This document shows positions 12,645 through 42,696 of a DNA stretch of 64,000 nucleotides, piece by piece. Numbering within the stretch: the first letter of the stretch is position 1; each line of letters begins with the position of its first letter. The notes beneath the pieces are model-generated. The model saw only the letters and a list, made by a program, of their open reading frames with translations. It did no database searches and was not told the origin of the DNA. Source of the stretch: Escherichia coli (GTDB lineage Bacteria; Pseudomonadota; Gammaproteobacteria; Enterobacterales; Enterobacteriaceae); NCBI RefSeq assembly GCF_001677475.2, contig NZ_CP015229.1; one strand, written 5' to 3'. Position numbers and translations under genes: made by a program.

Positions 12645-12953
12645 TCAATATACGATCTGGTCTACATGATCACCAAAATCATCGTCGTCGTCCTCATCGC
12701 CACCATCTACTGCTGGCCAATCAACAAACCAGCCAGCGTAAAGATGCAGCGTTCGGAGAACATCACTTGCGGGAGCATCAAGGGTGTTAACGAATCCCAT
12801 ATAGCTATTGGGATTTGCTCCAGCTATGGCTTCAGCGATCATGTCCTCGGTAATGTCACCGGAGATAATGCTTAAACGCCCGGAAACTTCTTCATTATCA
12901 TCAAATTCGATAATGGCATCTCCACCTAATGGCGCTGCGATTTTAATCTGCAT
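12645..12953 (-). CDS. small highly acidic protein (C-terminal DGGDEDDDDDFGDHVDQIVY), last gene of the dar operon
   Basis: Track ORF; overlaps the ddrB-like stop by 11 nt; function unknown. Confidence 0.5.
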   Translation of the reverse strand: MQIKIAAPLGGDAIIEFDDNEEVSGRLSIISGDITEDMIAEAIAGANPNSYMGFVNTLDAPASDVLRTLHLYAGWFVDWPAVDGGDEDDDDDFGDHVDQIVY

Positions 12954-13724
12954 TATTTAGCTCCTTTGCCACACCTAATAACAGTTCCAGCAATCCGTCA
13001 CCATTCATCAGTGATGCGGCAGCGGCCTCTTTGTCATGATACAACTGAAGAGCCATAGAGAATACTTCCGTTGCTGACGTTTTGGAAATAGTCGGTGATT
13101 TCTGCCGAATTTTCCCGGTGTTACTTACTGAGGCTGGCGGGTATACCTTCGCCATATAAATATTACTCAATCGAGATCTGAAGCACCATTCAGGCTTGCC
13201 ACGCCCACCGATATTGACGAAAGATGGCTTATCCCCTTCAACATTGGCCTTCAGGAATGACCGGGCTTTCTCTAACAAACCAGGGTTACTGTACTCAAGA
13301 TGATGACCCAGCTCGTGCCACAGTGCACTTGCATTTTCATCGTTCAAATTGACAGCAACAACACCATTTAGATTTGCATATGCCCTTCCCTGGTGGTGAA
13401 CTACCTTTGATAAGGTCGATATTTTCCCGCCGGTCAGGCGATAAATATCAGCAAGTTCCTTGCGCAGGTCTATCCCACCATTCTGTCCAGCGCGGGCTTC
13501 TTCCACTTCTTCTGTGATAAAAGAGTCGGCCCACTCAAGAGCTTTTTCTTCAGATACGGATGAGTTTGCGATCGCACTGTTCATGGCAGATAACACTTTC
13601 TCGTGGACCGAACCCATACTTCGCTGATTCATTTGCCAGCGTGTCTGCGGGTTATATGAGAATCGCTTAAGTAGTTGGTCAAGCTGCTCAAGTTCTTCTT
13701 CACTGACATACTTTTTAGCCTCAC
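12943..13724 (-). pseudogene. ddrB: 3' fragment of IS-interrupted ddrB-like gene (carries HELGHH zincin-like motif)
   Basis: Reading across the IS target duplication rejoins this frame to the upstream fragment (...PGIIGE|AKKYVSEEELEQL...). Confidence 0.6.
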
Positions 13725-13789
13725 TATTAGACGTCAACTAGTTTTGCCGACTCGCGCCAACTATACTGGCCGCACCCTTCAGGGCGACA

Positions 13790-14545
13790 TCAAGTCGCGC
13801 TTGTTACTGCCTTCGCTGTCTTTTTCCTGTAGCTTTCCCCTTTCAGTTCGAACATATATCCGTGATGGATCAGCCTGTCTGCCGCAGCCACCGCCATAGT
13901 CTCATCCACGAAGATGCTGCCCCACATGCTGAACGGATGGTTACTGGTTATCACCAGGCTCCCACGTTCATAGCGATGCGCTATTAACTCGAACAGCACA
14001 CCCGTTTCGGCACTATCGCGTTTGACATAGCCAAGATCATCCACCACTATCACCCGGTAGCGATCCAGTTTCAGTAGCAGCTCATTCAGTTTCAACTGAG
14101 CTCTGGCTTTACGTAGTTCCTGCAACAGCTCTCCTGCGCTGTAGAACCGGGCCCGGTAGCCCTGACCTACTACGCCATCCACGATCGCTGCCGCCAGATG
14201 GCTTTTCCCCAACCCGCTGGCTCCGAACAGCAGAACGTTTTCTCCTGCATCAACCCAGTCTGTCGTTTCACAGAGTTGCCGGAACTGAGCTCCATTCAGT
14301 TCCGGCACCTGACTGAAGTCGTATTCGCTCAGCGTTTTGGCAACTGGCAACCGGGCCTCCTTTTTATAACGACGCAGTTTTTCACTCTCGCGCCACAGGA
14401 GTTCTTCATTGCATAGCGTCAGAAGATAGCGCGATGGTGTCCAGCCTTCTGCCAGCGCTCGTTTTTCCAGAGCGTGCCATTCAGCTCCAACTCGTGTCAG
14501 GCGTAGTTTACGCAGGCTATGTTCAAGGTGATGGATATTGCTCAC
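13790..14545 (-). CDS. istB: IS21-family helper ATPase IstB
   Basis: Walker A GASGLGKSH, Walker B VIVVDDLGY, ITSNHPFSMW motif typical of IstB/DnaC-like AAA+ proteins. Confidence 0.9.
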   Translation of the reverse strand: MSNIHHLEHSLRKLRLTRVGAEWHALEKRALAEGWTPSRYLLTLCNEELLWRESEKLRRYKKEARLPVAKTLSEYDFSQVPELNGAQFRQLCETTDWVDAGENVLLFGASGLGKSHLAAAIVDGVVGQGYRARFYSAGELLQELRKARAQLKLNELLLKLDRYRVIVVDDLGYVKRDSAETGVLFELIAHRYERGSLVITSNHPFSMWGSIFVDETMAVAAADRLIHHGYMFELKGESYRKKTAKAVTSAT

Positions 14546-16041
14546 TGCGAACCTCCCTTGCCACGCAGTAGTTGCTCATAACTGCTCAGGTTATGCTGTA
14601 TCACATTGACTACCGGCAACGCCTTTTCTTTTATACCCAGGAAGCGCATCAGCCGGTGCAGATCCACGTTTCCCGGGGTATTCAGCATCTGCTCCATACC
14701 TTTTGCCACGACTGAGATATCGTCGTATCCTGCAGCCAGTTTCAGGGCATGTACCATCAGCCTTCCTGCCATATCGGGCTCCAGATGATTACATAAGCGA
14801 CGCCACAGCCTCCGCCATTCATCGTCCGGCAGGATGTCATTTCTCAGCGTTGCATGGCAGAACGCACCGGGCTTTTTTGCCAGACTGTCGATCACATGTC
14901 GGAAGTCGATACGACGGGCCCGCGTCTTCCCTTTTTCTGGTCTGACGCGAGGGCAGCTCATGACCTCGCTGCTGCCAACGTAACAGCTCAGACGATCGTC
15001 CCATAACCTGACCCGTAACAGTTGACCTACAAGCCGGGAAGGTACGCTGTAGACGACGTGCTTCACATTGATGGTACTGCTGCGACTAACCCTCACAGTC
15101 AGCTCATCATAGTCAGCACTGCGACGAAGCGGCAGCGGTTTCAGATGAAGACGTTCTTCCTTGACCAGATCCTGATTGTTACGGTTGTGCCGCATAACCT
15201 GCTGAGTGATGAAGGCCTGATATTCTTCTATGGTGCTGAAGTCGTTACTGCCCCGCAGTATCAGCGCCTGACAGATACGCCTTTTCAGATGTCCGTGGGC
15301 ACTTTCAACCGAGCCATTTTCGTGGCCCCGACCGGCATTATTGTGTACGCCCTGCATTCCGTAGTGCTGACAGAGAGTAGCATAACGCTCAGTCAGCTCG
15401 CGGCGTCCATCTTCGCCCTGTTGTTTCCATGCTGCCCTCAGGCTGTCCGTTTTATGTTCTACCGGCACTCCGCCCAGTTGTCCGAGGGCTTCCTGCAGGC
15501 CTTCAGCCAGAGCAGAGAAGCTCTCACCACCCAGAACAACCCGCATCCAGCTCCAGTGGCTCCATTCCAGACGGAAGTGATACAACTTATGCGCCAACAA
15601 CTTACCGGCGATGGTGACAACTACACCTTTCAGTTCAGTAAAGTCCGACAGGCCTCGCAGGCCGGGCTGATGTTGCTGGCGGAACATGACCTCCTGCTCT
15701 GTACCATACTGTAGTTTCCATTCGCGAACCCGCCGTTGCATTGTTCTTCGAAGGCTGTTGGGGTACTGGCCGGGATATTTATCCTGTAGCATCTCCAGTA
15801 GAGTTGTTGGTGTCAGAGCCGGCCTCTCTTTCAACAGAGGAACAAGCATGCTGTCCCACACAGCTTCCAGAGGATCTTTGCGTGTGCGCCAGTGCCGAAC
15901 ACTGTTTTTTGCCCACTCTCCTTTTTCGATCCGACGACCAGAACGGACTGAGATACCAGCCTTCATGGCCGAGATATGCTGAGTTATACCTTTCTTACGC
16001 TGAGTCATATAGTAACTGACCTGAGAAGTATTGAGCGTCAC
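14542..16041 (-). CDS. istA: IS21-family transposase IstA (true start may be an internal ATG)
   Basis: N-terminal HTH pattern like IS21 IstA, overlaps istB start in the typical istA-istB arrangement. Confidence 0.8.
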   Translation of the reverse strand: MTLNTSQVSYYMTQRKKGITQHISAMKAGISVRSGRRIEKGEWAKNSVRHWRTRKDPLEAVWDSMLVPLLKERPALTPTTLLEMLQDKYPGQYPNSLRRTMQRRVREWKLQYGTEQEVMFRQQHQPGLRGLSDFTELKGVVVTIAGKLLAHKLYHFRLEWSHWSWMRVVLGGESFSALAEGLQEALGQLGGVPVEHKTDSLRAAWKQQGEDGRRELTERYATLCQHYGMQGVHNNAGRGHENGSVESAHGHLKRRICQALILRGSNDFSTIEEYQAFITQQVMRHNRNNQDLVKEERLHLKPLPLRRSADYDELTVRVSRSSTINVKHVVYSVPSRLVGQLLRVRLWDDRLSCYVGSSEVMSCPRVRPEKGKTRARRIDFRHVIDSLAKKPGAFCHATLRNDILPDDEWRRLWRRLCNHLEPDMAGRLMVHALKLAAGYDDISVVAKGMEQMLNTPGNVDLHRLMRFLGIKEKALPVVNVIQHNLSSYEQLLRGKGGSQ

Positions 16042-16129
16042 GCCATTTCCTGTTGGATCATGTAAATGACACTCAGGTTACAAAACCGGCCAGAATAATC
16101 GGCGCCAGGCGGACTGAGTTATTGTCGTC

Positions 16130-18346
16130 TCATACCTCACCAATAATGCCAGGGAGAATATTGCCGTTAGGATTAAACGCTCGCGAAAGGAAGAGTTTCA
16201 GCGCCCCCATGCCCTCCGATGCTTCAATATCACCAATAACCCGGTTAACAATGGCCGCACTCTTCGGATTAGCATCCGCCAACGCTCTGGCTACAATTTG
16301 CAGGGACGATACGACCTCACGCTGCATATCCGTCCTGATCTCATCAATAAACTCTGGCGTTATGCCGTGCTCTTTAAGAATATCCCTGCCTTCCGCCGTT
16401 ACCCCATCGATATCACCGACATGTTTATTAACCCGACTTTGCAATGCCTTAAATGCCTTCAGAATTCCACGGGAATCATCCGCTTTACTAACGGCCTTCC
16501 TGAATGCTGGCAAGAAGTCTGAGTTAACCTCATTTTGTTGATCGGCCCACTGAATGGAGGCTTCTTTCATCTCGTCCAGAGTCAGATCACCCAACGCGGT
16601 ATGGTCTGTGAATATGAGCGACAACCTCTGAACCATTTCTGCCAATGGTGATGCCGAATGCGCCGCGCTAAGGAATGCTTTCACCCTGGTTGGGCGAATG
16701 GAAAACCAGTCAATAGCTGGTGGCATATCTCCGTTTTGTATCGCCTGCGCTATCTCATCAAAGCCGTCGCGCCCAAGGGAGGATGCGTGATTTAACAATC
16801 CGCGAAGTAACGAATTGCTGATACCGAATAATCGGCACCATTTATTCACGTCGGCAACAGGCATTCGAACAAAATGCGCAAGCACTTGTACAAGCTGTTC
16901 ATCCTGGGGATCTGTACGGGAAAGCAGCCTGATCAGATGAATAATGTCTTTGATGCCGGATGCCCGATGTAATAGCAAGCTGGTATATGGAGCAACACCG
17001 TTGTAACTACCGCCGGAAACGGACTCGAAAAGACCGCCGGATATCCCTTGCATGCCTTCGTTTTCCAGTTCCTGAGACACCTGGCGAAGGATATCCTGTA
17101 ACGACACATCGCCGCCGCCAAACATATCCCCCAGCGCCTGGCCCTGGTGCTGTAACTCATCATTGATACGTTGAGCCATCAACTTAAAGGCGGTGGCCAT
17201 ACGCTTCGCGCTACGGTTATTCGCGACGATGAACAACGCGAGTGCTTTCACTTCCGGGGCCGTTTCGCTGAACATATCCCCCTGAGCAATAACATCGGTA
17301 ATATGCTGGCCTGACTCCTTCGATTGCCTTACCAGGTCTACCGCATCTTTCAATGCCGCCAGCGCCTTTTTATCGAGGCTATCCGCTGTCTCAATGCCAT
17401 CAACAATAGTTGTCACAGCCTGCTTGTGCGCTTCTCCTGATAAAGCCTGCATCTGGACAAAATCATTGGCTGCCGCATTAAGCGCCGTCAGAACATTACG
17501 CATATCCGGATCAGGTTCTTCTGCAACCATCCTTACCAGGCGCGCATCCTTATATGCCTTGGCAAAGATCGCGTTTTGTATACGGTCAACAAGTTGCCGC
17601 GTTGGTCGCCCATCTTCCGTTACAAGGCCAGCAGCCTGTGTGGCACCAACTTGCGTCATGAATCCGCGAATAAACGCGTCATTACTGCGGCTAAGCAGAT
17701 CTCCGCTTTCTGACGGATTAAACAGCGCCATCATCGCCGGTGTTATGCTGTCGGCATCAACAAAAGCCTTTTCACTGGCTGCCATTTCCTGAAGATCAGA
17801 AATATTTGAGTCCTTGGCAAACTGAACGCGGTCAACCTTAGTTAACCGGCGGCGCACCAATACAGGAGCCGTCATTGATTCAACCTTTTCAGGTCGTATG
17901 CCGAATTCGGTCGCATGTTCAATCAGGTACTCACGATACCGATCCGCATTGCCGTCCTGATAGGCTTTAATGATTCCCATGGTCCGTCCATTACCTGACT
18001 CAACGGCATTGTCCTCACCAATTATCGGCGCGCCATGGCTGGATAAACCGGAATCGGTAAGCTGAGCAGGCCGCAAATCTTTGGATATCTGGTTAACCTG
18101 AAGAAGGCTGGATGCGCGGGTCCGGTCGCGCGGCTGAAGTTCCTGGGGATAGTCAGGATTAATTTTCCCATCCAGAGTATTGGATACCAAAAGAGCTGAG
18201 GCATCGACGATATCAAACGCTGTTTTTACCTCGTCTCCCTTCGCTGTCACCACATACGAAACCCGCCCATAATCGGGCAGGTTCTTAAGCAGCTCGATCA
18301 GCGTTTCTATGCTGGTGGCAATTACCACCTGATCGCTTAAGCTCAT
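16130..18346 (-). pseudogene. ddrB: 5' fragment of IS-interrupted ddrB-like gene; 738-codon ORF ending with an IS-encoded Val-stop
   Basis: ORF runs from the dar operon into the IS terminus and stops 2 codons inside; position after darA-ddrA matches P1. Confidence 0.6.
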
Positions 18347-18358
18347 CCCTGTTACGCC

Positions 18359-18724
18359 TTATGCTGCCTCTTCAATGTTGGCGGCTATCCATGCCGCCGT
18401 GTGCTGTTTAACCTGGTCCAGGTCGATGTATGTGCCAACATATTGACTCAAGTCCTGCAAGGTACCGATAAATGCATCTGTGCTCTGATCGACGAATTTA
18501 TCAGCCAGGAAATCAGCAACCAGTTTTGGCACACCATCATGTTCCGAAGGTTGTTTTTCCTCGCCACTACCACCGCCGGACGCGCCGTACCCCATCTGTT
18601 GCATGATCTGGTCAATTTCATCGCTGATATCCAGCAACTCCATGCCACTCGCGGTAGCAGCTTTGGACATCAGAGAATCCAACTTGTCGCTGAGGTCCAT
18701 TAACTCAATAGCTGATAGTGTCAT
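18359..18724 (-). CDS. DdrA-like small acidic protein
   Basis: Track ORF, overlaps darA stop; assigned by position. Confidence 0.4.
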   Translation of the reverse strand: MTLSAIELMDLSDKLDSLMSKAATASGMELLDISDEIDQIMQQMGYGASGGGSGEEKQPSEHDGVPKLVADFLADKFVDQSTDAFIGTLQDLSQYVGTYIDLDQVKQHTAAWIAANIEEAA

Positions 18725-20640
18725 GCCGCTACCCCCGCTTTCTGGATTGCTACCAGCAGATCAGCCAGGTGGCGAGCAGCGCCATTAACCAGCTCTTCGT
18801 TTTCCTCAAAACGCCCGGCAGCCTGAAGGGCTGCAATCGCTTCCCGGACATTACCCCGGGCGTTACGGATCTCCGCCATGTCAGTGCTTTGCATATCCAT
18901 CACGTTATTGAGATATTCAATGGCTTTATTAGCCTCTGCATCTGCTTCGCTAACCGTTTCATCAGGCTGTGCCGGGGCAGGTTCTGGCTGAGTAATCTCA
19001 CCGACTTCGGCCTGCAATGCATTGATCATGCTCTGCACCATTTTCTCGGTGCCAGCGCCCCCCGGAAACGCAATATTGGGGAAAGTTTTTTGAAACTGAG
19101 TTTTCAGCATTACGCGGAACTCGTCTGGTGAGCTGGTGGCCAGCTCCAGAGCTTTTTGTGCATATTTGCCAAACGGACCATTAGTAAGTGTCTTCGCCAG
19201 GAAGTCGAAAGAATCCTCGCGAGGCAATAACTTCAGGTCGTACTCACTCATTTGCTGATCAGAAAGCGGGGTATCGTAAGTAGCAATGCCGTAGCGTGCA
19301 TATTCATAATACGGGTCACCTTCATCAGGGCGCGGCAGAATTGCTTTGTTACCTTCAGGTATTGCGCCAGGGGCCGCCGGACGCATTTGCAGGGCATATC
19401 GATATGCACCTACAGAGACTTCTGGTTCAGGCGAAGAGCTACCGGTATCCTCCGCTGGTTCAGGTTCGACGTTTTCCGGTTTATGTTCTTCTGGTTGGAC
19501 CAGGTATTCCGATACATTACCCGCTTTATAGGCTTTAAACAGCTTGCCGATCGCATCTGCCATGTCCACACCCTGTATGGATTTAGCCTTGATCATGTAC
19601 ACGCTGCCATCCGAATCGGTTAACTGGATATACCCTTCGCCGTCCTCAATGAATTGCTTCATTGATGCTCCATTACTGAGCGTCACTTCCCCGTTCATAT
19701 GCATACGATTTTTGATACTGGCAAGGCGATCCGTCAGCGCGCGCGAGTGCCCACCAGTCATCCCCGCTGGATCAATGGTATCGCGCCCACCTGTGCGATT
19801 GAGCTGATCAATCTCCGTCTGCAAACGCTCATTCTCTTCATAAAGAGAATCCGCTTCCGATGCAACAGCGTTAATTTTCTGCTCCAGATCTACCTTCTGC
19901 CCTTCTACCGCTGCCACCTGATCCGCGAGGTCGCTCATGGCATCCTCTTTCTGGTCACTGTCAGCCTGTAGTTGGGTTATTTCATCAACCAGGGCTTTTT
20001 TCTTCTTCTGCGCACGCTGGAATTTTGCCGAGTTTTTCTCTGCAAGGTTGGCAAGTTTCATGGTGACCTGCGCCAGCGTCATATCACGTCCACTCATCGG
20101 AGCAACGGTGTGAGTAACGTCTTTTTTATTCAGTAAGAACTGGAAAGCAACCAGCGTATCGCTATTGGTGATCCGGTTTTCCGCTGTCGGGCTATGAAAC
20201 AGAATGCTGATAGTCTGACCATCACTGAGCGGAATAATGGCTGGCAGGACCGGCAGCCCGTTAACGTTACGTGCCCGGCCAATTTCAGCACCGCCGATCG
20301 CGCGCGCGCCGCTCTGGGCCACCTCCCCCGTTTTATCACTCCCCGCAGAGATTCCGGTACCATTCAGCTTCTGGTTCAATGCCCGGACAAATGCCTGCAT
20401 GGTCCGGTGTAACTGCAAACGAGTAGAACTAATCGCCTCCAGTAAATCCGTAGCACACCAGTGGATCGGCGTGTCATAGAAGAACGTAGCCTCGATTTCC
20501 TCCAGGGTGTTGGATTCCGTCATCAGATAGCGGTCCTCACCGGCCATTAATGCGCGATATTCATCATCAGTCACTGGCGGGGGAAGCACGTCAAGCCCAG
20601 GCTTGATCGTCACCCCTTTATTGATATTTAACTGTTCCAT
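18721..20640 (-). CDS. darA: DarA-like capsid-delivered antirestriction protein, 639 aa
   Basis: Size and position (hdf-darA-ddrA-ddrB) match P1; coiled-coil central region. Confidence 0.6.
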   Translation of the reverse strand: MEQLNINKGVTIKPGLDVLPPPVTDDEYRALMAGEDRYLMTESNTLEEIEATFFYDTPIHWCATDLLEAISSTRLQLHRTMQAFVRALNQKLNGTGISAGSDKTGEVAQSGARAIGGAEIGRARNVNGLPVLPAIIPLSDGQTISILFHSPTAENRITNSDTLVAFQFLLNKKDVTHTVAPMSGRDMTLAQVTMKLANLAEKNSAKFQRAQKKKKALVDEITQLQADSDQKEDAMSDLADQVAAVEGQKVDLEQKINAVASEADSLYEENERLQTEIDQLNRTGGRDTIDPAGMTGGHSRALTDRLASIKNRMHMNGEVTLSNGASMKQFIEDGEGYIQLTDSDGSVYMIKAKSIQGVDMADAIGKLFKAYKAGNVSEYLVQPEEHKPENVEPEPAEDTGSSSPEPEVSVGAYRYALQMRPAAPGAIPEGNKAILPRPDEGDPYYEYARYGIATYDTPLSDQQMSEYDLKLLPREDSFDFLAKTLTNGPFGKYAQKALELATSSPDEFRVMLKTQFQKTFPNIAFPGGAGTEKMVQSMINALQAEVGEITQPEPAPAQPDETVSEADAEANKAIEYLNNVMDMQSTDMAEIRNARGNVREAIAALQAAGRFEENEELVNGAARHLADLLVAIQKAGVAA

Positions 20641-23074: not shown

Positions 23075-24676
23075 TTGAGCACGGCTAACACATGGAGTGC
23101 GCGCCAGACTTTCAACGGCGGGATCACCGGAGCGCTGACAGGGAACGCCGATACCGCAACGAAATTGAAAACAGCCAGAAACATTAATGGCGTCAGGTTC
23201 GATGGTTCTGGTGACATTAATATCAATACTATGGTATCGCGTGGTCGCGTAACGGCTCTGGGGGCGAATGCACAGGGGACATCCGGGATTCAGCTGTATG
23301 AGGCATACAACAATGGCTACCCTTCCCCCTATGGCAATGTGCTTCACCTTAAAGGTGCCACCGCTGCTGGCGAAGGTGAGTTATTCATTGGCTGGAGTGG
23401 CACGAGTGGTGACCATGCGCCCGTACATATCCGTTCGCGGCGGGATACTGATTCTGCTAACTGGTCTGAATGGGCGCAGGTCTATACGTCAAAAGATTCC
23501 GTTCCCGGCGTTAATGCCAAAGGGAATCAGGACACCTCTGGTAATGCGGCTACAGCGACTAAATTGCAGACAGCATGTACTATTAACGGTGTCTCGTTTG
23601 ATGGTTCTAAAAACATTGAGTTAACGGCGGAAGATTTAAATCTACAGGAATTCATTAATAAAGCAAATAATGCCGTTCAGCGTTCAGGCGATATCTTGTC
23701 CGGCGGGCTTACTTTTGAAAATGACTCAATCCTTGCCTGGATTCGAAATACTGACTGGGCAAAGATTGGATTTAAAAATGATGCCGACAGCGATACTGAT
23801 TCATACATGTGGTTTGAAACAGGCGACAACGGAAATGAATATTTCAAATGGAGAAGCCGCCAGAGCACCACAACAAAAGACCTGATGAATCTTAAATGGG
23901 ATGCTTTGTCTGTCCTTGTTAAAGCCCTTTTCAGCAGTGAAGTAAAAATATCGACAGTCAATGCACTGAGGATATTTAATTCATCTTTTGGTGCTATTTT
24001 TCGTCGCTCTGAAGAATGCCTGCATATCATCCCTACACGAGAGAATGAGGGAGAAAATGGTGATATAGGGCCACTACGCCCCTTTACGCTTAATCTCAGA
24101 ACTGGTCGGATAAGCATGGGGCATGGTCTGGATGTTACAGGAGATATAACAACTAACGCCTGGGTGTATGCAAACAGGTTTGCTATTAATAGTGGCTCAA
24201 CCTCATGGATTGATATGCGAAACCAGAATGTCATTTTTGGTAGAAACGCAGTATCAACAAGTTCTGCGCAGGCTTTGTTAAGACAAGACCATGCAGAACG
24301 CAAATTTTTTGTCGGTGGACTTGGTAACTACCAGTTTGGTTTTTACATGATTAATAATTCAAGGACAGCCAATGGCACCGATGGTCAGGCGTACATGGAT
24401 AATAACGGAAACTGGCTTTGCGGTGCGCAAGTTATTCCCGGCAACTATGGCAATTTTGATTCCAGATATGTGAAAGATGTTCGACTTGGTTCACAGCAAT
24501 ATTATGGAGTGAACAACTGGCAAACATGGAATTTCCAGTGCCCGTCAGGTCATGTATTGTCTGGTATTAATGTTCAGGATACAGGGTCCAACTCTGCCGA
24601 TAATATAGCTGGCGTTTATTACAGACCCGTTCAAAAGTATATAAATGGCACCTGGTATAATGTAGCGAGCGTTTAA
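23075..24676 (+). CDS. alternative tail-fibre variable part (Sv-prime), promoterless in this orientation
   Basis: First about 190 aa are about 80 percent identical to the matching region of S; open frame extends upstream to the cix-like site. Confidence 0.75.
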
Positions 24677-24677
24677 T

Positions 24678-25205
24678 ATGATGCACTTAAAGAACATAAA
24701 AGCGGGTAACGCTAAAACACTGGAACAGTATGAGTTAACAAAGAAACACGGAGTTATCTGGCTTTACTCTGAGGACGGAAAAAACTGGTATGAGGAAGTG
24801 AAAAACTTTCAGCCAGACACAATAAAGATTGTTTACGATGCAAATAATATTATTGTCGCCATCACTAAAGATGCCTCCACGCTTAACCCTGAAGGTTTTA
24901 GCGTCGTTGAGGTTCCCGATATAACAGCCAACCGCCGCGCTGATGATTCAGGAAAGTGGATGTTTAAGGATGGAGCTGTAGTTAAACGGATTTATACGGC
25001 AGACGAACAGCAACAACAAGCCGAATCACAAAAGGCCGCATTGCTTTCCGAAGCTGAATCAGTCATTCAGCCGCTGGAACGCGCTGTCAGGCTGAATATG
25101 GCAACAGACGAGGAACGCACACGACTGGAAGCATGGGAACGCTACAGTGTTCTGGTCAGCCGTGTGGATACGGCAAATCCTGAATGGCCACAAAAGCCTG
25201 AATAA
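24678..25205 (+). CDS. alternative tail-fibre assembly chaperone (U-prime)
   Basis: Paralogue of the U protein on the opposite strand (MMHLKNI...NWYEE...[13 protein letters not shown]). Confidence 0.8.
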
Positions 25206-25210
25206 AAATT

Positions 25211-25230
25211 AAGGCCCGCTATCGGGCCTT
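25211..25230. terminator. bidirectional hairpin between convergent U-prime and U
   Basis: AAGGCCCG-CTAT-CGGGCCTT. Confidence 0.55.
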
Positions 25231-25233
25231 GTC

Positions 25234-25767
25234 TCATTCAGGTTGTTCGGGAAATGTTACTGGCAGGCTGGAGGTGTCTGTAGATTCGACTTTCTGCGCA
25301 TAGAGCATCCACTCGGTTAATTTTTGTTTATTCTCGTCGGAAAGGATGCCCAGCCGTAGCTGTGAGTCCCATAGCTGGGTTTTATCCCTGACAAGTTGCA
25401 ACAGGCTTTGCTTTTCATTCTCTGCCTGCTGCCTCTGTTCCTCCTCGGTATAAGTTCGCTTTATCACTACGCCATCTTTGAACATCCATTTACCCGAAAT
25501 ATCAGCCCGGCGATTTGCTGTAATATCAGGAACCTCAACGACGCTTGCGCCTTCTGGATTAATTGCTGAAACATCCTTTTCAATACAAATAATAACGTTG
25601 TTGTGGTCATAGACCATTTTCAACGTATCAGGCTGAAAGTTCTTTTGTTCCTCATACCAGTTTTTCCCATCCTCTGTATAAAGCCATTTGATGTTAAATT
25701 GTTTCGTTAGCTGGTATTGCTCTTTTGTTTTAGGGTTGCCAGCAGTAATATTTTTTAAGTGCATCAT
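25234..25767 (-). CDS. tail-fibre assembly chaperone (U)
   Basis: Downstream of S, paralogous to U-prime. Confidence 0.8.
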
Positions 25768-25769
25768 AA

Positions 25770-28691
25770 TTAAATACTCCCCGCGTTATACCACGTTCCA
25801 TTAATGCAATACTGAATTGGCCTTGCCTGAGTTGTATCAATTAATTCATCACGGTTTCCGTTAACTGAACCCGTAACGACATAACCTGACCTGTCAGACC
25901 AGCCGGGACCATTCCATGTCTGAACAGATGACAGACCGCCAAGGCGAATACCTGTAATAAACCTTGAGTTACATTCTGCCTGCGTATATGCACCAACATC
26001 TCCTGCTGATGGCTTGCGTGTTGTGGTGTAAAATTCTGACCAGTCAGCTTCGAATCCGTAACCATCACGCGCTGAACGATAAAAAATACCACCGTTCCTG
26101 TAATTCACGCGGAACTGTACAGCAGGGCAGCTCCCCGTATTCATATTGAAGTGGAGGATTAATGTCGATGCGCCACCAATGATTGCGTTATAGACCCCGC
26201 TATTCCAGTTCCAGCCAACAGCTTTATCATTTCCGACAGTGCTTCCTGTTTGCCCTAAAGCAAATGCAGGTTGCTGATTTTTCGTGTTGTAGTCACGCCG
26301 CCAGCCTGGCGCATAATCTCCACCGTGGTTTATATAAGTAAATTGTGCATTAGTAGTTCCGCCACCGCTGGAAGTGCTTGGTGTTGTTACACGGATGGTC
26401 ATGGCACCTTTATTACCCATAACCTCAATAACGCAACCTGCAAGATGAATAGTTCCACAGCCAGTATCGGTAATAATTTTATTATTGCCGTATGACCATG
26501 AACATTTGCACATCCAGTATGGGTGATTGAATGCCCCTTGAGAATCCAGCCATTCAATCAATTGTGCTGTTGTCCAGTTACCTGCCCCTGTACTAATAGC
26601 ACTGTGAAAAGCGCGACATGCACCAATATTTTTGGTGAAGGTATCTTTTCCTGGAATATCCGCGCCGTTCTGGTTTTTCTGTAATGCTCCTACGGCTAAT
26701 TCTACGGTTTGCTCAAGATTTAAATCTTCCGCCGTTAGCTCAATGTTTTTAGAACCATCAAACGAGACACCGTTAATAGTACGTGCTGTCTGCAATTTGG
26801 TCGCTGTAGCCGCATTACCAGAGGTGTCCTGATTCCCTTTGGCATTAACGCCGGGAACGGAGTCTTTTGACGTATAGATCTGTGCCCATTCGGACCATGC
26901 CGCAGCAGTGCTATCTCTTTTGGATCGAATGAAAGCAGGTGCATGAGCGCCATTTGTGCCACTCCAGCCAATGAGCAACTCGCCTTCACCAGTTGATGCA
27001 GCTCCCTTCAGGTGAAGTACATTCCCGTAAGTCGTCGGATAACCATTGTTGTATGCCTCATACATCTGCAATCCAGTAGCAGCACCTTGCGTTGTACCGG
27101 TAAGCGCAGTAACGCGTCCTCTAGACGTAATTGTTGGTATCGAAATGTTCGTAGAACCATCGAACCTGACGCCATTAATATTTATGGCTGTTTTTAATTT
27201 CGTCGCGGTGTCGGCGTTCCCTGTCAGCGCCCCGGTGATCCCGCCGTTGAAAGTCTGGCGCGCACTCCATGTGTTAGCCGTACTCAACAGGGGGATCTTT
27301 TCACCGCTGGTACCGAGTTCTCTTAAACCAAGGTATTGGATAACGGCCAGTGTGCTTGTTTTAGCCAGAATATCGCGACCGACTGACGTTAAATCAGTCT
27401 GAGCTACCGTATCCTTACCAGTAAAATAAGGCAGTTTGTTTGCACCAGTCGCAAGGGCCGCGAGAGCGGTTAAAGTTGCATCCAGAGGCTGTTTGCCTGC
27501 CAGCGCATTTGTCATTGTTGTCGCAAAGTTCGGGTCATTGCCAAGTGCTGCGGCAAGCTCATTCAGGGTATCAAGAGCTTCTGGTGATGAACCAACCAGT
27601 GCGGATATGGCAGCTCTTACATAAGCGGTCGTAGCAATCTGCGTATTATTTGTGCCCTGTGCGGCGGTCGGCGCAGTAGGGACACCCGTTAATGCAGGGC
27701 TTGCCAAAGGCGCTTTGAGAGCCAGGGCATTGTTGATAGTTGTGCTGAAATTCGGGTCGTTATTGATCGCAGCCGCTATTTCTTTCAGCGTATCCAGTGT
27801 GCCAGGCGCACCGTTGATAAGTGCAGTTATAGCTGCCTTAACAAAGGCTGTATTTGCGATCTGCGTGCTGTTTGTACCTTGCGCTGCCGTCGGCGCGGTT
27901 GGCGTTCCTGTCAGACTCGGGCTTTCTATTGGCGCTTTGGTATCAGCCAGATCCTTTACAGACTTAACGGCTTTAGGGGTCGCCGCCATTGTTTCGCTGT
28001 CGCTGTTAGTTTCGCTACTGAGCTGAACTAATCCCTTTTGCGTTGTGCTTGCATCCTGCGCCGTATACTTGCTTTTTGCCAGATCGTAGGCTTTTTTAAC
28101 TGCCAGCGAACTTGCAGCAACATCACTTCTACTACTGGTTACAGAGTCTGAAATATCAATGCCGATCGTGCGGTTAATACGCTCGGATGTATCAATCATC
28201 TCCTGGGTAATGGCTGATACGCCAGCAGGGATATTCACCGTACAAACAAGCAGCTCCCCATCTCCTAACTGATATGAATCGGTATAGGTTCTGGCAACAA
28301 ATTCAGCCGCATGAATATGTGACGCGGTATTAACCTGATAGGTATCCTCTCCAAGGAGGTATCTTCCCTTCAGCACAATTGCATATTTCTTGCCTGCACT
28401 AAGTGCAAGAGAAATATCCTTACGGTGCTGAATAGTTACCTGGTAGAATTCACCAATATCCACCGACGCCGCGCCTGCGGTTTTATCACCATCCACTGAG
28501 GTGATTAACAGGTTCATCCCACCGCCAGGCTTAGGTAAGAAACCGGCATAAAATCCCGGGTCAACAATCCCCCTGAATTTTCGGTTTAGCGCGGCTGACA
28601 GATATGGTTCGTGGTATTGCACATCAGCCACCAGAGCCAACGACTCGGGTGATGGGGAAGTAACCGATGTGACAACTGTAACGTCATTCAT
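25770..28691 (-). CDS. tail fibre protein S (constant N-terminal part plus variable part), about 973 aa
   Basis: Track ORF trimmed to the ATG behind an AAGGA RBS; internal tandem Ala/Thr-rich repeats; crosses the right cix-like site. Confidence 0.8.
27316..27343. other. cix-like recombination site (right), inside S
   Basis: TTCTCTTAAACC-AA-GGTATTGGATAAC, inverted relative to the left site. Confidence 0.65.
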
Positions 28692-36865: not shown

Positions 36866-37310
<445 letters not shown>

Positions 37311-37400
37311 GTTATTTCAAGCCTTTTAAGCCCCTTCAAAAATGCCCGCATCTCCTTTTAAAGCGAATTTTAAAGAAGCTCCAAAAGCAGGTCAATTAAG

Positions 37401-37916
37401 TCAACCTGCCTTTGCTTTTACGCTGTGTGAGAGAATACTTGCTTCAATTTCTTCCAAAATCTCTCTGACTTGCTCGTCGGACATATCAACCAACATCAAT
37501 GCAGCCAGGCGTTTACGACCCTCTAGTTGCAGCAGTTCTTGAGTATCTTTGTCCAATAAGCGTAGTACCGTTTCAACGCCTTTCCTTGCGAACATGCTGG
37601 TAAGAGCCTCTCGTTCTTCACTAGTAAGAAACGAGAGCATCTCAGTTAGCTGATCGCCTTGACTTAAACTGCTTTGTGATTCTTGTATTTTTGGTGGGTT
37701 TCCGTTGCCTGTTTTTAACCATTCAAGACTAACACCTTCACTTTCTGCAATGCGTACCAATATGCTTTCTCGAGGTTCTGGTGTGTTTCCCTTTTTAAAA
37801 TAGCTTTGTAACGTATTGATATTTATTCCCCAGGCTCTGGCTGCAGCACTTCTTGATGGATACCGTCTAATAAGATATGCCATGCGCTCTACGATAGGTT
37901 CTTTTGCTTGCTCCAT
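37401..37916 (-). CDS. Mu-like prophage repressor (c-like), N-terminal HTH
   Basis: Leftward gene divergent from ner/A/B; HTH-like segment RSAAARAWGININTLQSY. Confidence 0.6.
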   Translation of the reverse strand: MEQAKEPIVERMAYLIRRYPSRSAAARAWGININTLQSYFKKGNTPEPRESILVRIAESEGVSLEWLKTGNGNPPKIQESQSSLSQGDQLTEMLSFLTSEEREALTSMFARKGVETVLRLLDKDTQELLQLEGRKRLAALMLVDMSDEQVREILEEIEASILSHSVKAKAG

Positions 37917-38107
37917 AAAAGTACCTCTAGGTATTTTTCTGCATAAAGGTTCTTTTCCATCTATCTAATTGAATAGAAAGGAAAATTCAAAAATACAAAC
38001 AAAATACAAAAAATACCTTGTAATGGTACTTTTTGTGATCTACGATTTTATCCATACGGATATCCGACCGGATATCCGCGCGGGTAACTTTGTAGGGTAA
38101 AGGAAAG
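37917..38107. promoter_or_regulatory. divergent early promoter/operator region with tandem palindromes CGGATATCCG and AAATACAAA repeats
   Basis: Two copies of the 10-bp palindrome separated by 2 bp just upstream of ner. Confidence 0.5.
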
Positions 38108-38359
38108 ATGAGACAAAGAGAAGATCGCGACCGCGATTGGCCTTCGCTAAAGATTCAGCTGGCGCTCAAAGATAATGGGTGGTCTTCCTTCCGGGAGCTT
38201 TCACTCCATGCTGGTTATGCTCAGGATTCACTGAAAGCGGTAGTTCGTACACCGAACAAAAAATACGAACGCGTAATTTCTGACGCTATAGGTGTACCGC
38301 CAGAAATCATCTGGCCCAGCCGGTATCGTAACGATGGATTTATCAGGAAGGCGTCGTGA
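38108..38359 (+). CDS. ner: Ner-like DNA-binding protein
   Basis: Pattern DW...L...SL.ALS...GY...L......P...E.II...L...PE.IWPSRY matches Mu Ner/Nlp. Confidence 0.8.
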   Translation: MRQREDRDRDWPSLKIQLALKDNGWSSFRELSLHAGYAQDSLKAVVRTPNKKYERVISDAIGVPPEIIWPSRYRNDGFIRKAS

Positions 38360-38360
38360 T

Positions 38361-40457
38361 ATGCAGTTGTACGTTACCGCAAACGACTTGCTCGGCGTAC
38401 CAGGAATGCCAGTCACTGCAAAAGGTATCCGTCAGGCGTTACAGCGTTTTGCCCATGGGCGCAATGACGTTAGCCGCCGACGTGAAGGCACAAAAGCCAT
38501 TGAATACCACATCGATTGCCTGCCAGAGGTAACTCAAAGGGCACTGCGTGAACGCTATGTGGAACAGCTGGTGGCTACAGAGAACAATGTTTCTGAAGTG
38601 AAGGTTGTTACCAGGAAGGCTCGTAATCCTGATGCAGTCCAGGCAATCGAAGCATATCGCGGTTCTCCACAACTGATGGAAGAACGCCTGAACGCGTTGA
38701 CCGAAAACCAGCGCCGGGTATCTGAAGCAAGATCTGCGCTGGTGGTGGAAGTGCTGAGGCTGGAAAGAGACGGTGATCTCGGGCGACTGAAAGCCATTAA
38801 CTTTCTTGTCGAAAAAGCCCGTAAAGGTGAACTACCGGAACGCCTGCAACAGGCCGCAGTTAACGCCAATGCAAAACGTGGTGCTAATCGCACCATCAGT
38901 CGTGACCCACTTTATCAGTGGGTGCTGAAGTACAACCAGTCACAGAACGCCGCAGAACGGCTGCTGTTACTGGCACCAGGAAAACGCGACGAAATAAAAC
39001 CGGAGGAAATTAGCTGGCTACCTGAATTTCTGGCGCAGTATCGCCAGGCGAATGGCAGACCTATGTCAGAAGCCTACGAAGATTTTGTCGCGGAATGGCA
39101 GCGTCGCCATGCAGACGAACCCTACATGATAGAGGTGATGCCCTCTTACGATGTGGTTCGTTATGCCATGAAGAAATTGCCGGAAGTGGTGAAACAAAAA
39201 GGCCGTGTTACCGGCAGTGAATACCGTCAGCTTGAAGGATTCACCCGCCGCGACTGGACAGCTATGCCGGTGAATTATGTCTGGATTGGTGACGGTCACG
39301 GTATGAAGCTGAAATGTGCGCATCCGATCCACGGGCGTCCATTCTCACCAGAAGTCACGTTTGTGATCGACGGTGGAACCCGGTTTGTTGTTGGCTGGAG
39401 TCTTGATCTTGCCGAGAACGTTTTCGCCGTTGCCGGAGCGATACAGCACGGCATTCGCAACCACGGAAAACCGTTCCTGTATTACTCGGATAACGGTTCT
39501 GGTGAAACGGCTGACATGCTTGACAAAGAGGTCGTGGGTATTCTGCCCCGCCTGGGGATTAAACACCCAACAGGTATTGCCGGTAATCCACAGGGGCGCG
39601 GCATTATTGAACGCCTGAACCGGACACTGCCGATGCGTATAGCCAGGAGGTATCGCACCTATTTTGGCAAGGGTGCTGACCGGGAATCGTTGCGTGTACT
39701 TAACCGTGATCTGCGTTCAGCGTTTAACGCCCTGCAACAGGACAAGCCTCTGAACGACCGCCAGAAAGCTGCAATGCGCGAGCTACCATCGTGGGCGGAG
39801 CTTATTGAGGCTATTCGTGAAGGCGTGGAATGGTACAACAACCGCCCGCATTCTGAGCTGCCTATGAAACCGAACGGGCGGCATTACAGCCCGGCAGAGT
39901 TCAGAAAAAAACGCCTGGCAGAAGAAGACACCGAAATTGAGTGGCTGAGTGATCTTGAGCTGCGCGACATGTTCCGCCCGATGGTGGAGCGTCCGGTAAA
40001 ACGCTGTGAAATCAAATGGCTTGGCAATATTTATTACGCGCCGGAGCTGCGTGACGAACACGGTCGCAAAGTGCTTATCAGTTATGACATTCATGACGCC
40101 GAGCGAATTACGGTACGTCGCAAGGACGGCAGCTTTATCTGTGAGGCGATATGGAACGGCAATAAACGCGCAGCCTTCCCTGTCAGTGCGGAATATCACA
40201 AACAACAGCAGCGTATTAAAGGGATGCGCAAACGCGCTGAGGAAAAAATTCGCGATGCTGAAGATGAAGGTATTCAGATTCTGGAACACAAACAGGCTGA
40301 ACCCTGGCTGGATAATGTTTATCGCCCGGTTGGTAATGTGGTGGCCGTTCAGCAACCGGAATATGAAGAAGAGCATGACGAAGAATTTGAACGCGATTTC
40401 AGACTGGGGATGCAAAAACTTTTTGCCATGCAGGAAGAAGATGATCCGCTGGCCTGA
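38361..40457 (+). CDS. Mu-type DDE transposase A
   Basis: Track ORF 38292-40457 trimmed to the ATG; N-terminus parallels Mu A (PG.P.T..G......KGGKAIEY); about 700 aa. Confidence 0.85.
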   Translation: MQLYVTANDLLGVPGMPVTAKGIRQALQRFAHGRNDVSRRREGTKAIEYHIDCLPEVTQRALRERYVEQLVATENNVSEVKVVTRKARNPDAVQAIEAYRGSPQLMEERLNALTENQRRVSEARSALVVEVLRLERDGDLGRLKAINFLVEKARKGELPERLQQAAVNANAKRGANRTISRDPLYQWVLKYNQSQNAAERLLLLAPGKRDEIKPEEISWLPEFLAQYRQANGRPMSEAYEDFVAEWQRRHADEPYMIEVMPSYDVVRYAMKKLPEVVKQKGRVTGSEYRQLEGFTRRDWTAMPVNYVWIGDGHGMKLKCAHPIHGRPFSPEVTFVIDGGTRFVVGWSLDLAENVFAVAGAIQHGIRNHGKPFLYYSDNGSGETADMLDKEVVGILPRLGIKHPTGIAGNPQGRGIIERLNRTLPMRIARRYRTYFGKGADRESLRVLNRDLRSAFNALQQDKPLNDRQKAAMRELPSWAELIEAIREGVEWYNNRPHSELPMKPNGRHYSPAEFRKKRLAEEDTEIEWLSDLELRDMFRPMVERPVKRCEIKWLGNIYYAPELRDEHGRKVLISYDIHDAERITVRRKDGSFICEAIWNGNKRAAFPVSAEYHKQQQRIKGMRKRAEEKIRDAEDEGIQILEHKQAEPWLDNVYRPVGNVVAVQQPEYEEEHDEEFERDFRLGMQKLFAMQEEDDPLA

Positions 40458-40532
40458 ATAAAAAAACAGTCCGCGGGAACGGACTGTTAAACAAGGAAAA
40501 CAAAGTGAATCTGTAATGATGGAGGAAATACT

Positions 40533-41486
40533 ATGACTGATATTGATGATGTTTTCAACACTATTAATACGTTGATCAACGAGGGCGACAAGCCCCAGGA
40601 AGATATTGCTGATGAGGCCGGAATGTCTCCGGCAACACTCTCGGCTCTGCGTAAAGGAGAATACAAAGGCAATGTCGAAGGTATGCATGACAAATTACAG
40701 GAATGGTATCGGGTCTGGCAAAAAGGGCAGAATTTGTCAGGTGCCCCCGGCGTTGTGAAGACCCAGACATTTTGTGATTTGCATGAGCTGTTTAAAACAG
40801 TGCGCTCACTCGGGATTATCAGTGTTGTTGTTGGCGTACCGGGTGTCGGCAAAACTTTTGCTGCACGGGAATATTGCCGCAAGACAGCTAATGCCTGGAT
40901 GGTGACGCTTGCACCGGCACATTCGAGCGTAACGGAATGCCTCCTTGAAATAGCATATGCGCTGGAAATTAATAATCCGGGAAGAAATAAGGGGAATATA
41001 ACCCGCGCCATTCGCAGAAAACTGGGCGGTGGTAAAGAAACCAGTGGCCGTGTTAACCCCCTGCTGATTATTGATGAAGCTGATCACTTAAGTGTGGATG
41101 GTCTGGAGCAATTACGCGCCATTCAGGATGCTACTGGCGTGGGGATGGTTTTAATTGGCAACCCGAAACAGATGGCGGATGCCACCCGTCGTGGGACTGA
41201 TGAACTGGCTCGTTTGTTCAGCCGTTTTGCCATGACAAAACAACTGCGCAAAGTGAAAAAGACTGATGTGATGGCTGTAGCCAAAGCATGGGGAGTAACA
41301 CAGGAAGATGAGCTGGATCTGCTGATGAGGGTTGCCGAAAAGCCCGGGGGATTGCGTGTATTAACTCACACACTGAATCATGCGTGGCTGGCGGCGAAAG
41401 GTGCTGGTTCATCCCTGAATAAAAGTCACATAAAAGCGGCTTTTAAGGAGGCTTACAGCAACCCTAAGTTGCTGAACTGGCAGTAA
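40533..41486 (+). CDS. Mu B-type AAA+ target-DNA activator
   Basis: Walker A GVPGVGKT, Walker B LLIIDEADHL; directly after transposase. Confidence 0.85.
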   Translation: MTDIDDVFNTINTLINEGDKPQEDIADEAGMSPATLSALRKGEYKGNVEGMHDKLQEWYRVWQKGQNLSGAPGVVKTQTFCDLHELFKTVRSLGIISVVVGVPGVGKTFAAREYCRKTANAWMVTLAPAHSSVTECLLEIAYALEINNPGRNKGNITRAIRRKLGGGKETSGRVNPLLIIDEADHLSVDGLEQLRAIQDATGVGMVLIGNPKQMADATRRGTDELARLFSRFAMTKQLRKVKKTDVMAVAKAWGVTQEDELDLLMRVAEKPGGLRVLTHTLNHAWLAAKGAGSSLNKSHIKAAFKEAYSNPKLLNWQ

Positions 41487-41498
41487 GGGGCATAAACC

Positions 41499-41726
41499 AT
41501 GATGTCACGGAATATCAAAATGGCAACGGAAGTAAAGACCTGGTTACAGGAGCGCGGCAGCCACGTCAACGAATCCTGGCTGGGCGTGGCCCGCCCGGTG
41601 CTTGAAATCACCTGCCCGCCACCAGAGCTGGTCAGAAACGCTGTCAGGATTATGGAGCATAAATCCGGGGTTGCCCGTTCAGTATGGACGGCCCGTCTTA
41701 ATGGTTGTCAGATTATCTGGAGATAA
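41499..41726 (+). CDS. hypothetical early protein (Mu kil position)
   Basis: Position only. Confidence 0.35.
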
Positions 41727-41728
41727 CG

Positions 41729-41959
41729 ATGAGTATCAGGTCTGGAAAATATATTGAGTGGGTTAAACATTGTCAGCGCCACGGAGTGCCTTTGACGACA
41801 TATAAATGCCCAGGATGTGGCAAACAACTTATGACGCAAAGTTCCCCCGAAAATGAAGTATGGGACTCCTTCACATGTTGTCCGTGGTGTAGTGGTGTTT
41901 TCTTTAAACAGGTAGAAGGCGCGAAAATAAAGGTCAGCGCAGTTATTCAGAATCAATAA
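41729..41959 (+). CDS. zinc-ribbon protein (CPGCG ... CCPWCSG)
   Basis: Two Cys pairs; track ORF trimmed to the ATG. Confidence 0.45.
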   Translation: MSIRSGKYIEWVKHCQRHGVPLTTYKCPGCGKQLMTQSSPENEVWDSFTCCPWCSGVFFKQVEGAKIKVSAVIQNQ

Positions 41960-41970
41960 GGAGAAACAAA

Positions 41971-42240: not shown

Positions 42241-42260
42241 TTCATAAAGGAACTCTGACA

Positions 42261-42680: not shown

Positions 42681-42696
42681 TAAGGAGGGCATCATC

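Follow-up and report, generated by a model that had tools for sequence, protein, structure and literature searches.

A P1-type phage-plasmid of Escherichia coli carries its antirestriction gene ddrB in two pieces, separated at codon 737 of 995 by one copy of the IS21-family insertion sequence ISEc10, and a second mobile element, a Mu-like prophage, breaks pmgC on the same backbone. Transposition of ISEc10 together with ordinary mobile-element decay, including conversion of the element into a phage-dead plasmid, very probably explains these observations. All coordinates refer to the window, the whole 64,000-nucleotide stretch of DNA that was analysed.

ISEc10 interrupts ddrB

The ddrB locus and its neighbours comprise the following features:

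12645..12953 (−), hxr homologue, 102 aa, 98% identical to P1 Hxr
12943..13724 (−), 3′ part of ddrB, residues 737–995, with the zincin-type metallopeptidase domain and no start of its own
13719..13724, target-site duplication CCTCAC, copy 1 (single copy in P1)
13725..16134 (−), ISEc10 (IS21 family), 2,410 bp, with ddrB in the same orientation
13725..13772, terminal inverted repeat, istB-proximal arm, 48 nt, 71% complementary to 16087–16134
13790..14545 (−), istB, helper AAA+ ATPase, 251 aa, intact (NCBIfam NF038214)
14542..16041 (−), istA, IS21-family transposase, 499 aa, intact (NCBIfam NF033546)
16087..16134, terminal inverted repeat, istA-proximal arm, 48 nt, pairing with 13725–13772
16135..16140, target-site duplication CCTCAC, copy 2 (single copy in P1)
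16130..18346 (−), 5′ part of ddrB, residues 1–737 followed by a Val and a stop codon that ISEc10 contributes, 738 aa, 80.3 kDa
17394..17792 (+), iddB homologue, an antisense ORF within ddrB that is not hit by the IS
18359..18724 (−), ddrA homologue, intact, 121 aa, directly preceding the 738-aa ORF
18721..20640 (−), darA homologue, intact, 639 aa

A preliminary description of this DNA had proposed that the split gene was ddrB, and comparison with P1 bore this out. Both parts were contiguous on one P1 DdrB homologue (98.4% identity for residues 1–737 and 99.2% for residues 737–995), and the synteny of the darA operon was conserved, with the P1 order lydA-lydB-hdf-darA-ddrA-ddrB-hxr kept and all neighbours full length. 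The IddB homologue was 98.5% identical to P1 IddB over 132 aa, and every P1 gene in the window apart from ddrB and pmgC was full length. Of 20 phage records covering the repaired protein fully, 17 matched it by tblastn as a single piece over residues 1–995.

In silico removal of ISEc10 and one CCTCAC yielded a single ORF of 2,988 bp and 995 aa (...PGIIGEAKKYVSEEELEQL...), the same length as P1 ddrB (NC_005856 24542..27529; DdrB 995 aa, 108.7 kDa); the in-frame repair envisaged earlier thus stood, but its size of about 994 aa was one residue off. The P1 empty site contains one CCTCAC (25318–25323), the two BLAST segments against P1 overlapped by exactly these 6 bp, and the joined flanks equalled P1 across 70 bp. 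P1 DdrB and repaired DdrB have the ddrB-ParB and C-terminal zincin domains and the operon neighbours in common; unlike P1, the window gene is cut, and its normal start yields only the 738-aa product. As described previously, the 738-codon ORF enters the IS and stops there: its C-terminus reads ...PGIIGE-V-stop, with the Val codon spanning the junction and the TGA within ISEc10. The 6-bp duplication was likewise present on both sides of the IS. The downstream ORF occupies 12943..13737 (−). The hxr ATG overlaps the end of ddrB, so translational coupling of the two genes, and with it polarity of the IS on hxr, is probable. A consensus scan for outward or hybrid promoters or terminators affecting the 3′ fragment or hxr returned nothing above shuffled expectation, and found no minus-strand promoter close to the junction.

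The insert, named ISEc10, a common E. coli element, after RefSeq-annotated copies, is the only one of its kind within the window. Its assignment to the IS21 family, also made in the preliminary description, is supported by IstA and IstB, which scored above the cut-offs of their NCBIfam equivalogs (IstA, 226 bits against NF033546, cut-off 160; IstB, 267 bits against NF038214, cut-off 200) and are encoded consecutively on one strand, istA then istB, with a 4-nt overlap. At the DNA level, identity to RefSeq-annotated ISEc10 copies reached 99.9% at best, and identity to copies labelled 'ISEc10 family' by RefSeq/PGAP ranged from 99.0 to 99.9%. Only 3–5 nt, private to the window copy, distinguished it from the nearest copies; IstA was 2–3 aa apart from these, and IstB carried a private L80V that was not in the three copies compared. 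The imperfect inverted repeats of about 50 bp noted earlier were found again on inspection as the 48-nt arms listed above, exactly terminal on the element. The end bases TATTAGACG...CGTCTCATA marked the same limits in four independent copies in other contexts, with target duplications of 5–7 bp or none; direct target duplications in the IS21 family measure 4–8 bp. Copies in OkiPb01695 (NZ_AP042570/1) and RM9088 (NZ_CP042298) share the 2,410-bp length, the termini and the istA/istB order with the window copy, are 99.8–99.9% identical to it and have target duplications of 5–7 bp. None of the ISEc10 copies listed sits in ddrB, making this a new target. The perfect duplication, the intact istAB and the distance of just 3–5 nt to the nearest copies indicate that the insertion was simple and probably recent, in keeping with the original proposal.

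A Mu-like prophage end cuts pmgC

The preliminary description overlooked that another mobile element has also damaged this P1-type backbone:

36866..37152 (−), 3′ half of pmgC, codons 94–188 only
37153..64000 (+), Mu-like transposable prophage, left end plus about 27 kb, continuing past the window end

The Mu-like end cuts pmgC at codon 94/95. PHROG matches in the prophage included a repressor, MuA- and MuB-type proteins, terminase, portal, sheath and tape measure, with PHROG 310, 296 and 3037 at the left end, and Pfam Mu-transpos_C and Phage-MuB_C were matched on an identical contig. Chromosomal copies, whose alignments start from window position 37152/37153, and the empty site together fixed the left end to within 1 bp; CP099272.1 has an uninterrupted 188-aa pmgC across this point. 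Public gene calls include 'PmgC' proteins of 81–90 aa, but a naturally short pmgC was rejected since in the nearest intact relative a single 188-aa ORF runs through the junction. A simple insertion, of which only the left end lies in the window, is the likely origin of the break, although a rearrangement is possible. The chimeric PmgC′ ORF was found on a 136,480-bp contig, and the composite element, represented by the contig that carries WP_244585999.1, is probably about 136 kb; assembly GCA_002516285.1 contains both the ddrB and the pmgC lesions.

In P1, pmgC is essential (PMC9024508). With this gene broken, the element is most likely phage-dead and maintained only as a plasmid, which would relax selection on virion functions, including Dar; a comparison of plating between ddrB genotypes would thus be impossible on the element as it stands.

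Position of the cut in DdrB and expected effects

The repaired protein contains an N-terminal ddrB-ParB domain (PF18763, E = 6e-39, residues 36–167) and a C-terminal zincin metallopeptidase identified by an invariant HExxH at residues 872–876 and a fold search match. Iyer et al. 2017 predicted a C-terminal zincin-like metallopeptidase (MPTase) domain in P1 DdrB, and this domain is present in the window DdrB. Its recognition required exhaustive HMMER and fold searches; for the C-terminal fragment, Pfam, PHROGs and PDB sequence searches gave no functional label, and a word-indexed homologue search returned near-identical proteins only. The cut follows the ddrB-ParB/helical part at the N-terminus and precedes the metallopeptidase domain.

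The data are best accommodated by transposition of an active ISEc10 into the ddrB gene carried by an E. coli phage-plasmid of P1 type (IncY-like), which would have duplicated CCTCAC. Translation of the dar late operon would end one codon plus stop into the IS, leaving a 738-aa, 80-kDa DdrB that lacks the peptidase domain and a 3′ fragment that is presumably untranslated. Two secondary sources, PMC9024508 (Table 1) and PMC12810830, describe DdrB as helping DarB incorporation and link EcoB/EcoK with DarB, Ulx and DdrB. In P1, DdrB is known from this literature to enter the virion and to contribute to antirestriction. The earlier statement that loss of ddrB alters the restriction spectrum was only roughly right. 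Since DdrB reportedly assists the loading of DarB into capsids, ddrB::ISEc10 would be expected to weaken DarB-dependent protection against EcoB/EcoK-type type I restriction, and we infer that the allele is at least a hypomorph. DarA/DdrA-dependent protection should be intact, and some polarity on the overlapping hxr would be expected. Both ddrB and hxr are nonessential (PMC10695390).

The preliminary description called the insertion inactivating, which overstates the case: the 738-aa remnant could be null or partly functional. It may keep some function because the virion form of DdrB is reported as a processed product of about 76 kDa, the packaged half being a prediction (PMC5512222). A milder reading of the truncation follows: residues 1–737 plus Val would mimic the processed N-terminal virion form, retain capsid targeting and DarB loading, and lose to the IS only a spare self-processing peptidase. 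The first 700 residues of DdrB amount to 76.3 kDa, which, like the 80.3 kDa of the remnant, is near the mass of the packaged form. The well-folded core of the zincin domain begins only downstream of the cut: residues 1–30 of the fragment had lower pLDDT, and alignments of most homologues began at fragment residues 30–50. Phage D6 and Acinetobacter or Aeromonas phages have the N-terminal part without this C-terminal domain, and in P0009 the C-terminal ~325 residues are joined to an unrelated N-terminus, indicating that the modules are separable. In addition, the capsid-targeting signal of DarB is N-terminal (PMC9024508). Against this reading, the packaged DdrB fragment is itself predicted, and peptide-level evidence for it was not found in the virion-proteomics supplement of PMC9024508. 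In phage N4, a region with the equivalent peptidase domain is required for encapsidation (PMC5512222). The ~37 extra residues and the foreign Val could cause misfolding or degradation, and the peptidase may have targets beyond DdrB itself. On balance we regard a mild truncation of this kind as unlikely, albeit well ahead of the other alternatives, and consider it slightly more doubtful still that ISEc10 created a natural 'pre-processed', peptidase-less DdrB that is both packaged and functional. Nevertheless, the remnant, with 737 native residues against ~700 in the reported virion form, may still be packaged and work, in which case 'inactivation' would be the wrong term. The zincin domain of this polyvalent protein would then serve only for self-release, with no further need for it after truncation close to the processing site, and the allele would provide a natural separation-of-function mutant of the Dar system. 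As the break sits at the boundary between the delivered part of DdrB and its peptidase domain, the allele could be used to probe that domain's role.

Distribution of the insertion allele

The exact 738-aa product was found on about six (5–6) independent public contigs; the other junction is spanned by a 264-aa chimeric ORF, which likewise turned up on about six independent ones. Both junctions recurred at 100% identity in about six assemblies of draft or short-read type, and the samples that carry them include SRR24416076, SRR3929499, GCA_002516285.1 and GCA_018683295.1; for the right-hand junction, two contigs were retrieved, both 100% identical to the window and both breaking inside the IS. 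IS-containing ddrB was absent from complete E. coli genomes, PLSDB plasmids and INPHARED phage records: none of 1,430 matching E. coli records and none of 1,042 PLSDB records had an insertion at this site, and ddrB spanned 2,988 bp, with an empty site, in every matching complete record. The exact left-junction 27-mer had no match in IMG/VR or GTDB representative genomes.

Recurrence of a 100% identical allele in about six assemblies implies that it has persisted in a lineage, and could be taken as a sign of selection, with loss of DdrB or Hxr benefiting the plasmid or host through a changed restriction-evasion spectrum, as the previously proposed effect of ddrB loss on antirestriction would suggest, or through relief of a cost. 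However, the identical flanks fit clonal descent and not repeated independent hits, and the matching E. coli and PLSDB records surveyed above offer no further insertion. Moreover, Dar proteins act from the virion only (PMC12707154), and with pmgC broken the element probably cannot make virions, rendering selection on a Dar phenotype implausible; we judge this explanation very improbable. We favour reading the disruption of ddrB as part of the ordinary decay that mobile elements bring to a phage-plasmid, over an adaptive shift in its restriction-evasion spectrum. Misplacement of an IS copy into ddrB during assembly was dismissed as having almost no chance of being correct: ISEc10 occupies up to 12–14 places per genome in some strains and can mislead assemblers, but here a perfect 6-bp duplication lies exactly at the true IS ends, each junction occurs independently on about six draft or short-read contigs, and both retrieved right-hand contigs stop within the IS, as expected of a real repeat.

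Comparison with other P1 elements

The ddrB::ISEc10 allele adds one more case to a familiar class of event. The annotation of reference P1 places IS1 between isaA and isaB and has IS5 next to the res-mod genes, likewise insertions into non-essential functions and a long-known source of P1 genome variation; the IS family and target differ from those of ISEc10 in the window, from which the IS1 of P1 is absent. The classical darA-operon mutants with IS or transposon insertions were reportedly described by Iida et al. in 1987 and 1998. The insertion has little importance beyond annotation, where both ORFs should be recorded as one ddrB pseudogene interrupted by ISEc10 instead of two separate hypothetical proteins. 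The break in pmgC and the oversized composite call for scoring the element as a P1-type plasmid that is probably phage-defective, which matters for phage-plasmid censuses and for inferred infectious spread.

Defective P1-like phage-plasmids that turned into plain plasmids have been described with a stress on gene loss and exchange (Pfeifer & Rocha 2024, PMC10879196). Those plasmids resemble the element studied here in having a P1-type backbone that persists as a plasmid after loss of phage functions. In contrast to them, the backbone genes in the window are all still present and are disrupted by what are probably two clean insertions, one of an IS and one of a Mu-like phage, so that the window neatly illustrates how other mobile elements can disable a phage-plasmid.

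An ISEc10 copy splits a P1-type ddrB gene

The dar-region and IS genes discussed here all lie on the minus strand and are arranged as follows:

Upstream of the 738-aa ORF, minus strand: darA homologue, 639 aa, beside the ddrA homologue (ORF survey)
Upstream of the 738-aa ORF, minus strand: ddrA homologue, 121 aa (ORF survey)
16130..18346, minus strand: 738-aa ORF, the 5' part of ddrB, directly 3' of the ddrA homologue
14542..16041, minus strand: 499-aa ORF (istA), downstream of the 738-aa ORF
13790..14545, minus strand: 251-aa ORF (istB), downstream of the 738-aa ORF
12943..13737, minus strand: 264-aa ORF, chimeric across the second junction, downstream of the 738-aa ORF

The 738-aa ORF ends ...NILPGIIGE-V-stop, with the valine codon spanning the junction and the TGA lying within the insert. 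CCTCAC hexamers at 13719-13724 and 16135-16140 enclose a 2,410-bp insert (13725..16134). In silico deletion of the insert and one hexamer copy yields a single 'repaired' ORF of 2,988 bp and 995 aa, reading ...PGIIGEAKKYVSEEELEQL...; P1 ddrB (24542..27529) is likewise 2,988 bp. By tblastn, residues 1-995 of the repaired protein align in one piece with P1 (98.6%), P7, SJ46, RCS47 and others, and the window halves match P1 DdrB at 98.4% (residues 1-737) and 99.2% (residues 737-995). At the DNA level, window 12647-13724 corresponds to P1 24246-25323 and window 16135-22057 to P1 25318-31240; these segments share exactly 6 bp of P1, CCTCAC, and once joined the flanks match P1 perfectly across 70 bp. 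The preliminary description of a ddrB-like gene split by an IS21-family insertion, with inverted repeats and a target duplication, is therefore confirmed: the flanks align contiguously to one homologue, P1 DdrB, and re-inspection revealed CCTCAC at both ends and a terminal inverted repeat with 48-nt arms (71% complementary). Judged by sequence, the interrupted gene is ddrB, and its reconstruction is exact.

By its match to RefSeq-annotated copies, the insert is ISEc10, a member of the IS21 family. It is matched by 951 E. coli records, the top ones 99.8-99.9% identical over its full length, and RefSeq labels istA and istB of the best-matching copies 'IS21-like element ISEc10 family'. Both products score above the curated NCBIfam IS21 equivalog cut-offs (IstA, 226 against 160 bits; IstB, 267 against 200 bits). 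Four independent ISEc10 copies fetched with their flanks start with TATTAGACG and finish with CGTCTCATA, at the exact limits of the window insert; target duplications of 5, 6 and 7 bp flank three of them, and the fourth adjoins another IS. The window copy, the only one in the window, has 3-5 nt differences from its closest relatives and retains intact istA and istB, with an IstB L80V substitution absent from all three copies compared. Several E. coli genomics papers mention ISEc10. Strain RM9088 (NZ_CP042298/CP042296; crow) carries one of the closest copies (99.8%) together with the closest relative of the Mu-like prophage described below, and OkiPb01695 (bovine) has ISEc10 matches at 12 chromosomal places and 2 on a plasmid; these strains may hint at the type of host in which the window's element gained its insertions.

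The interrupted allele recurs in draft data

IS-containing ddrB was found neither in complete E. coli genomes (5,426 genomes; 1,430 matching records) nor in PLSDB plasmids (1,042 matching records). None of these matching records covers at least 80% of the query, and all listed flank matches span 2,988 bp, the empty site. In every phage record that covers at least 80% of DdrB the match falls in a single place, and therefore none of those records carries an IS in ddrB. The junction 27-mer was not found in IMG/VR or GTDB representative genomes. A look-up of exact sequences in draft data identified the 738-aa product on 5-6 contigs (Logan SRR24416076, SRR3929499 and others), two of which were retrieved; they match the window at 100% identity for 7.0 and 4.2 kb and end 27 nt into the IS. 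Six contigs, GCA_002516285.1 among them, carry the chimeric 264-aa ORF that spans the other junction. Because exact matches exist, the junctions are real; the allele marks a lineage sampled several times, and its identical flanks suggest clonal descent.

The insertion removes a predicted peptidase domain from DdrB

Pfam places a ddrB-ParB domain (PF18763) at DdrB residues 36-167 and detects no second domain. Iyer et al. (PMC5512222) report that P1 DdrB is cut down to a ~76-kDa (~700-aa) form before it is packaged, and predict that a C-terminal zincin metallopeptidase cleaves DdrB itself; packaging of the N-terminal rather than the C-terminal product is likewise a prediction. An exhaustive HMMER search with the severed fragment (residues 737-995) recovered 392 relatives, and HExxH is present in 143/143 relatives. 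Nine residues never vary among 23 sequences aligned at ~30% identity (R113, H136, E137, H140, E143, E178, Y189, Y194 and E219, fragment numbering), with H136, E137 and H140 corresponding to H872, E873 and H876 of full-length DdrB. The AlphaFold model of the fragment is confident (pLDDT 89.4, pTM 0.83); its first ~30 residues are modelled with lower confidence and most homologues begin to align at residues 30-50, so the IS lies in an inter-domain segment. Separability of the DdrB modules is supported by phages such as D6, which encode the N-terminal part only, and by the public 654-aa protein P0009, which joins the last ~325 DdrB residues (from ~670, zincin domain included) to an unrelated N-terminal region. 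P0009 is 100% identical to window 12946-13722 (minus strand) over DdrB residues 737-995 and represents module shuffling near the place, at ~700 aa, where DdrB is reported to be processed.

The remnant (the 738-aa product) would be a null or hypomorph if its folding, targeting or function depends on the peptidase domain; alternatively, it could act as a near-normal, 'pre-processed' DdrB. The computed masses of the remnant (80.3 kDa) and of the first 700 residues (76.3 kDa) accommodate both readings. In our judgement, loss or reduction of DdrB function is reasonably probable and is favoured, and near-normal activity is possible if rather unlikely; the preliminary term 'inactivating' is overstated. 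The main remaining value of the allele is that it could act as a natural peptidase-less DdrB.

[quoted passage not shown] Given these reported roles, a ddrB null is expected to resemble darB, and from the literature should be EcoB/EcoK sensitive while keeping EcoA protection. Dar proteins work in cis and exclusively from the virion, and mutant phenotypes are made harder to read by incorporation dependencies (PMC12707154). None of the genes ddrB, iddB and hxr is essential (PMC10695390). The start codon of hxr (ATG) and the stop of ddrB overlap, so that hxr has likely lost translational coupling or suffers polarity from the IS; no promoter-like or terminator-like signals above background were found around the IS junctions.

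A Mu-like prophage disrupts pmgC

P1 homology ends at 37152, within pmgC, of which only codons 94-188 remain; in IncY plasmid CP099272.1, the closest relative without the interruption, a 188-aa pmgC runs unbroken across this point. The gene is essential in P1 (PMC9024508). It is interrupted, probably by simple insertion, by the following feature:

37153 to the window end at 64000 and beyond, right end outside the window: Mu-like transposable prophage inside pmgC

The prophage encodes a repressor, MuA-type and MuB-type proteins, terminase, DUF935 portal, MuF-like protein, sheath, tape measure and baseplate hub. Motifs of the ATTCAAGATA type are repeated at its end; three spaced copies of the form ATTCAAGATA(A/G), at window 37170-37300 just inside the left end, resemble Mu's transposase-binding sites L1-L3. 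The end itself, TATGACC..., does not open with the canonical TG. Alignments to chromosomal relatives (93-97% identical) begin at window 37152/37153, confirming a true element end. The closest of these is in E. coli RM9088 (96.6% identity, 90% coverage). The pmgC::Mu junction also occurs in GCA_002516285.1 and GCA_018683295.1, the former also having the ddrB::IS junction. The chimeric PmgC' ORF equals an annotated E. coli protein, WP_244585999.1, and the longest contig carrying it is 136,480 bp, in agreement with about 95 + 2.4 + 38 kb. From the P1 headful size, a composite of ~136 kb would be well above what a P1 head can package with terminal redundancy.

With pmgC broken and the composite probably oversized, the element is most likely a plasmid that can no longer run the P1 lytic cycle to its end; P1-like phage-plasmids are known to become defective (PMC10879196). 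Such a loss would make a Dar phenotype moot, and the IS hit is then most simply explained by relaxed selection on virion functions. The preliminary description was right about what had inserted and where, but missed the larger neighbouring lesion in pmgC. The ddrB insertion is a new instance of an ordinary event, involving a known IS, a known gene and a known phage-plasmid family.

The surrounding backbone is P1-like

Window 1-37152 is colinear with P1 11639-46296, and all P1 genes within it except ddrB and pmgC are full length, with 90-100% identity. The invertible C segment (tail-fibre S/U genes; window 22414-28691) is oriented opposite to the P1 reference. Identity to P1 in the S variable part is just ~75-92%, so tail-fibre specificity probably differs from that of P1. 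A distant homologue (~31%) replaces lydC. At the site of P1's IS1 and isaB, adjoining hxr, lies a 364-aa ORF (11519-12613, plus strand) with no Pfam or NCBIfam match. A 217-aa ORF (10084-10737, plus strand) whose C-terminal part matches the Tad2-like Pfam domain (Thoeris anti-defence 2; E = 6e-18) sits within ~660 bp that have no DNA homology to P1 and interrupt the isaA homologue, with ssb on one side and the remaining isaA on the other.
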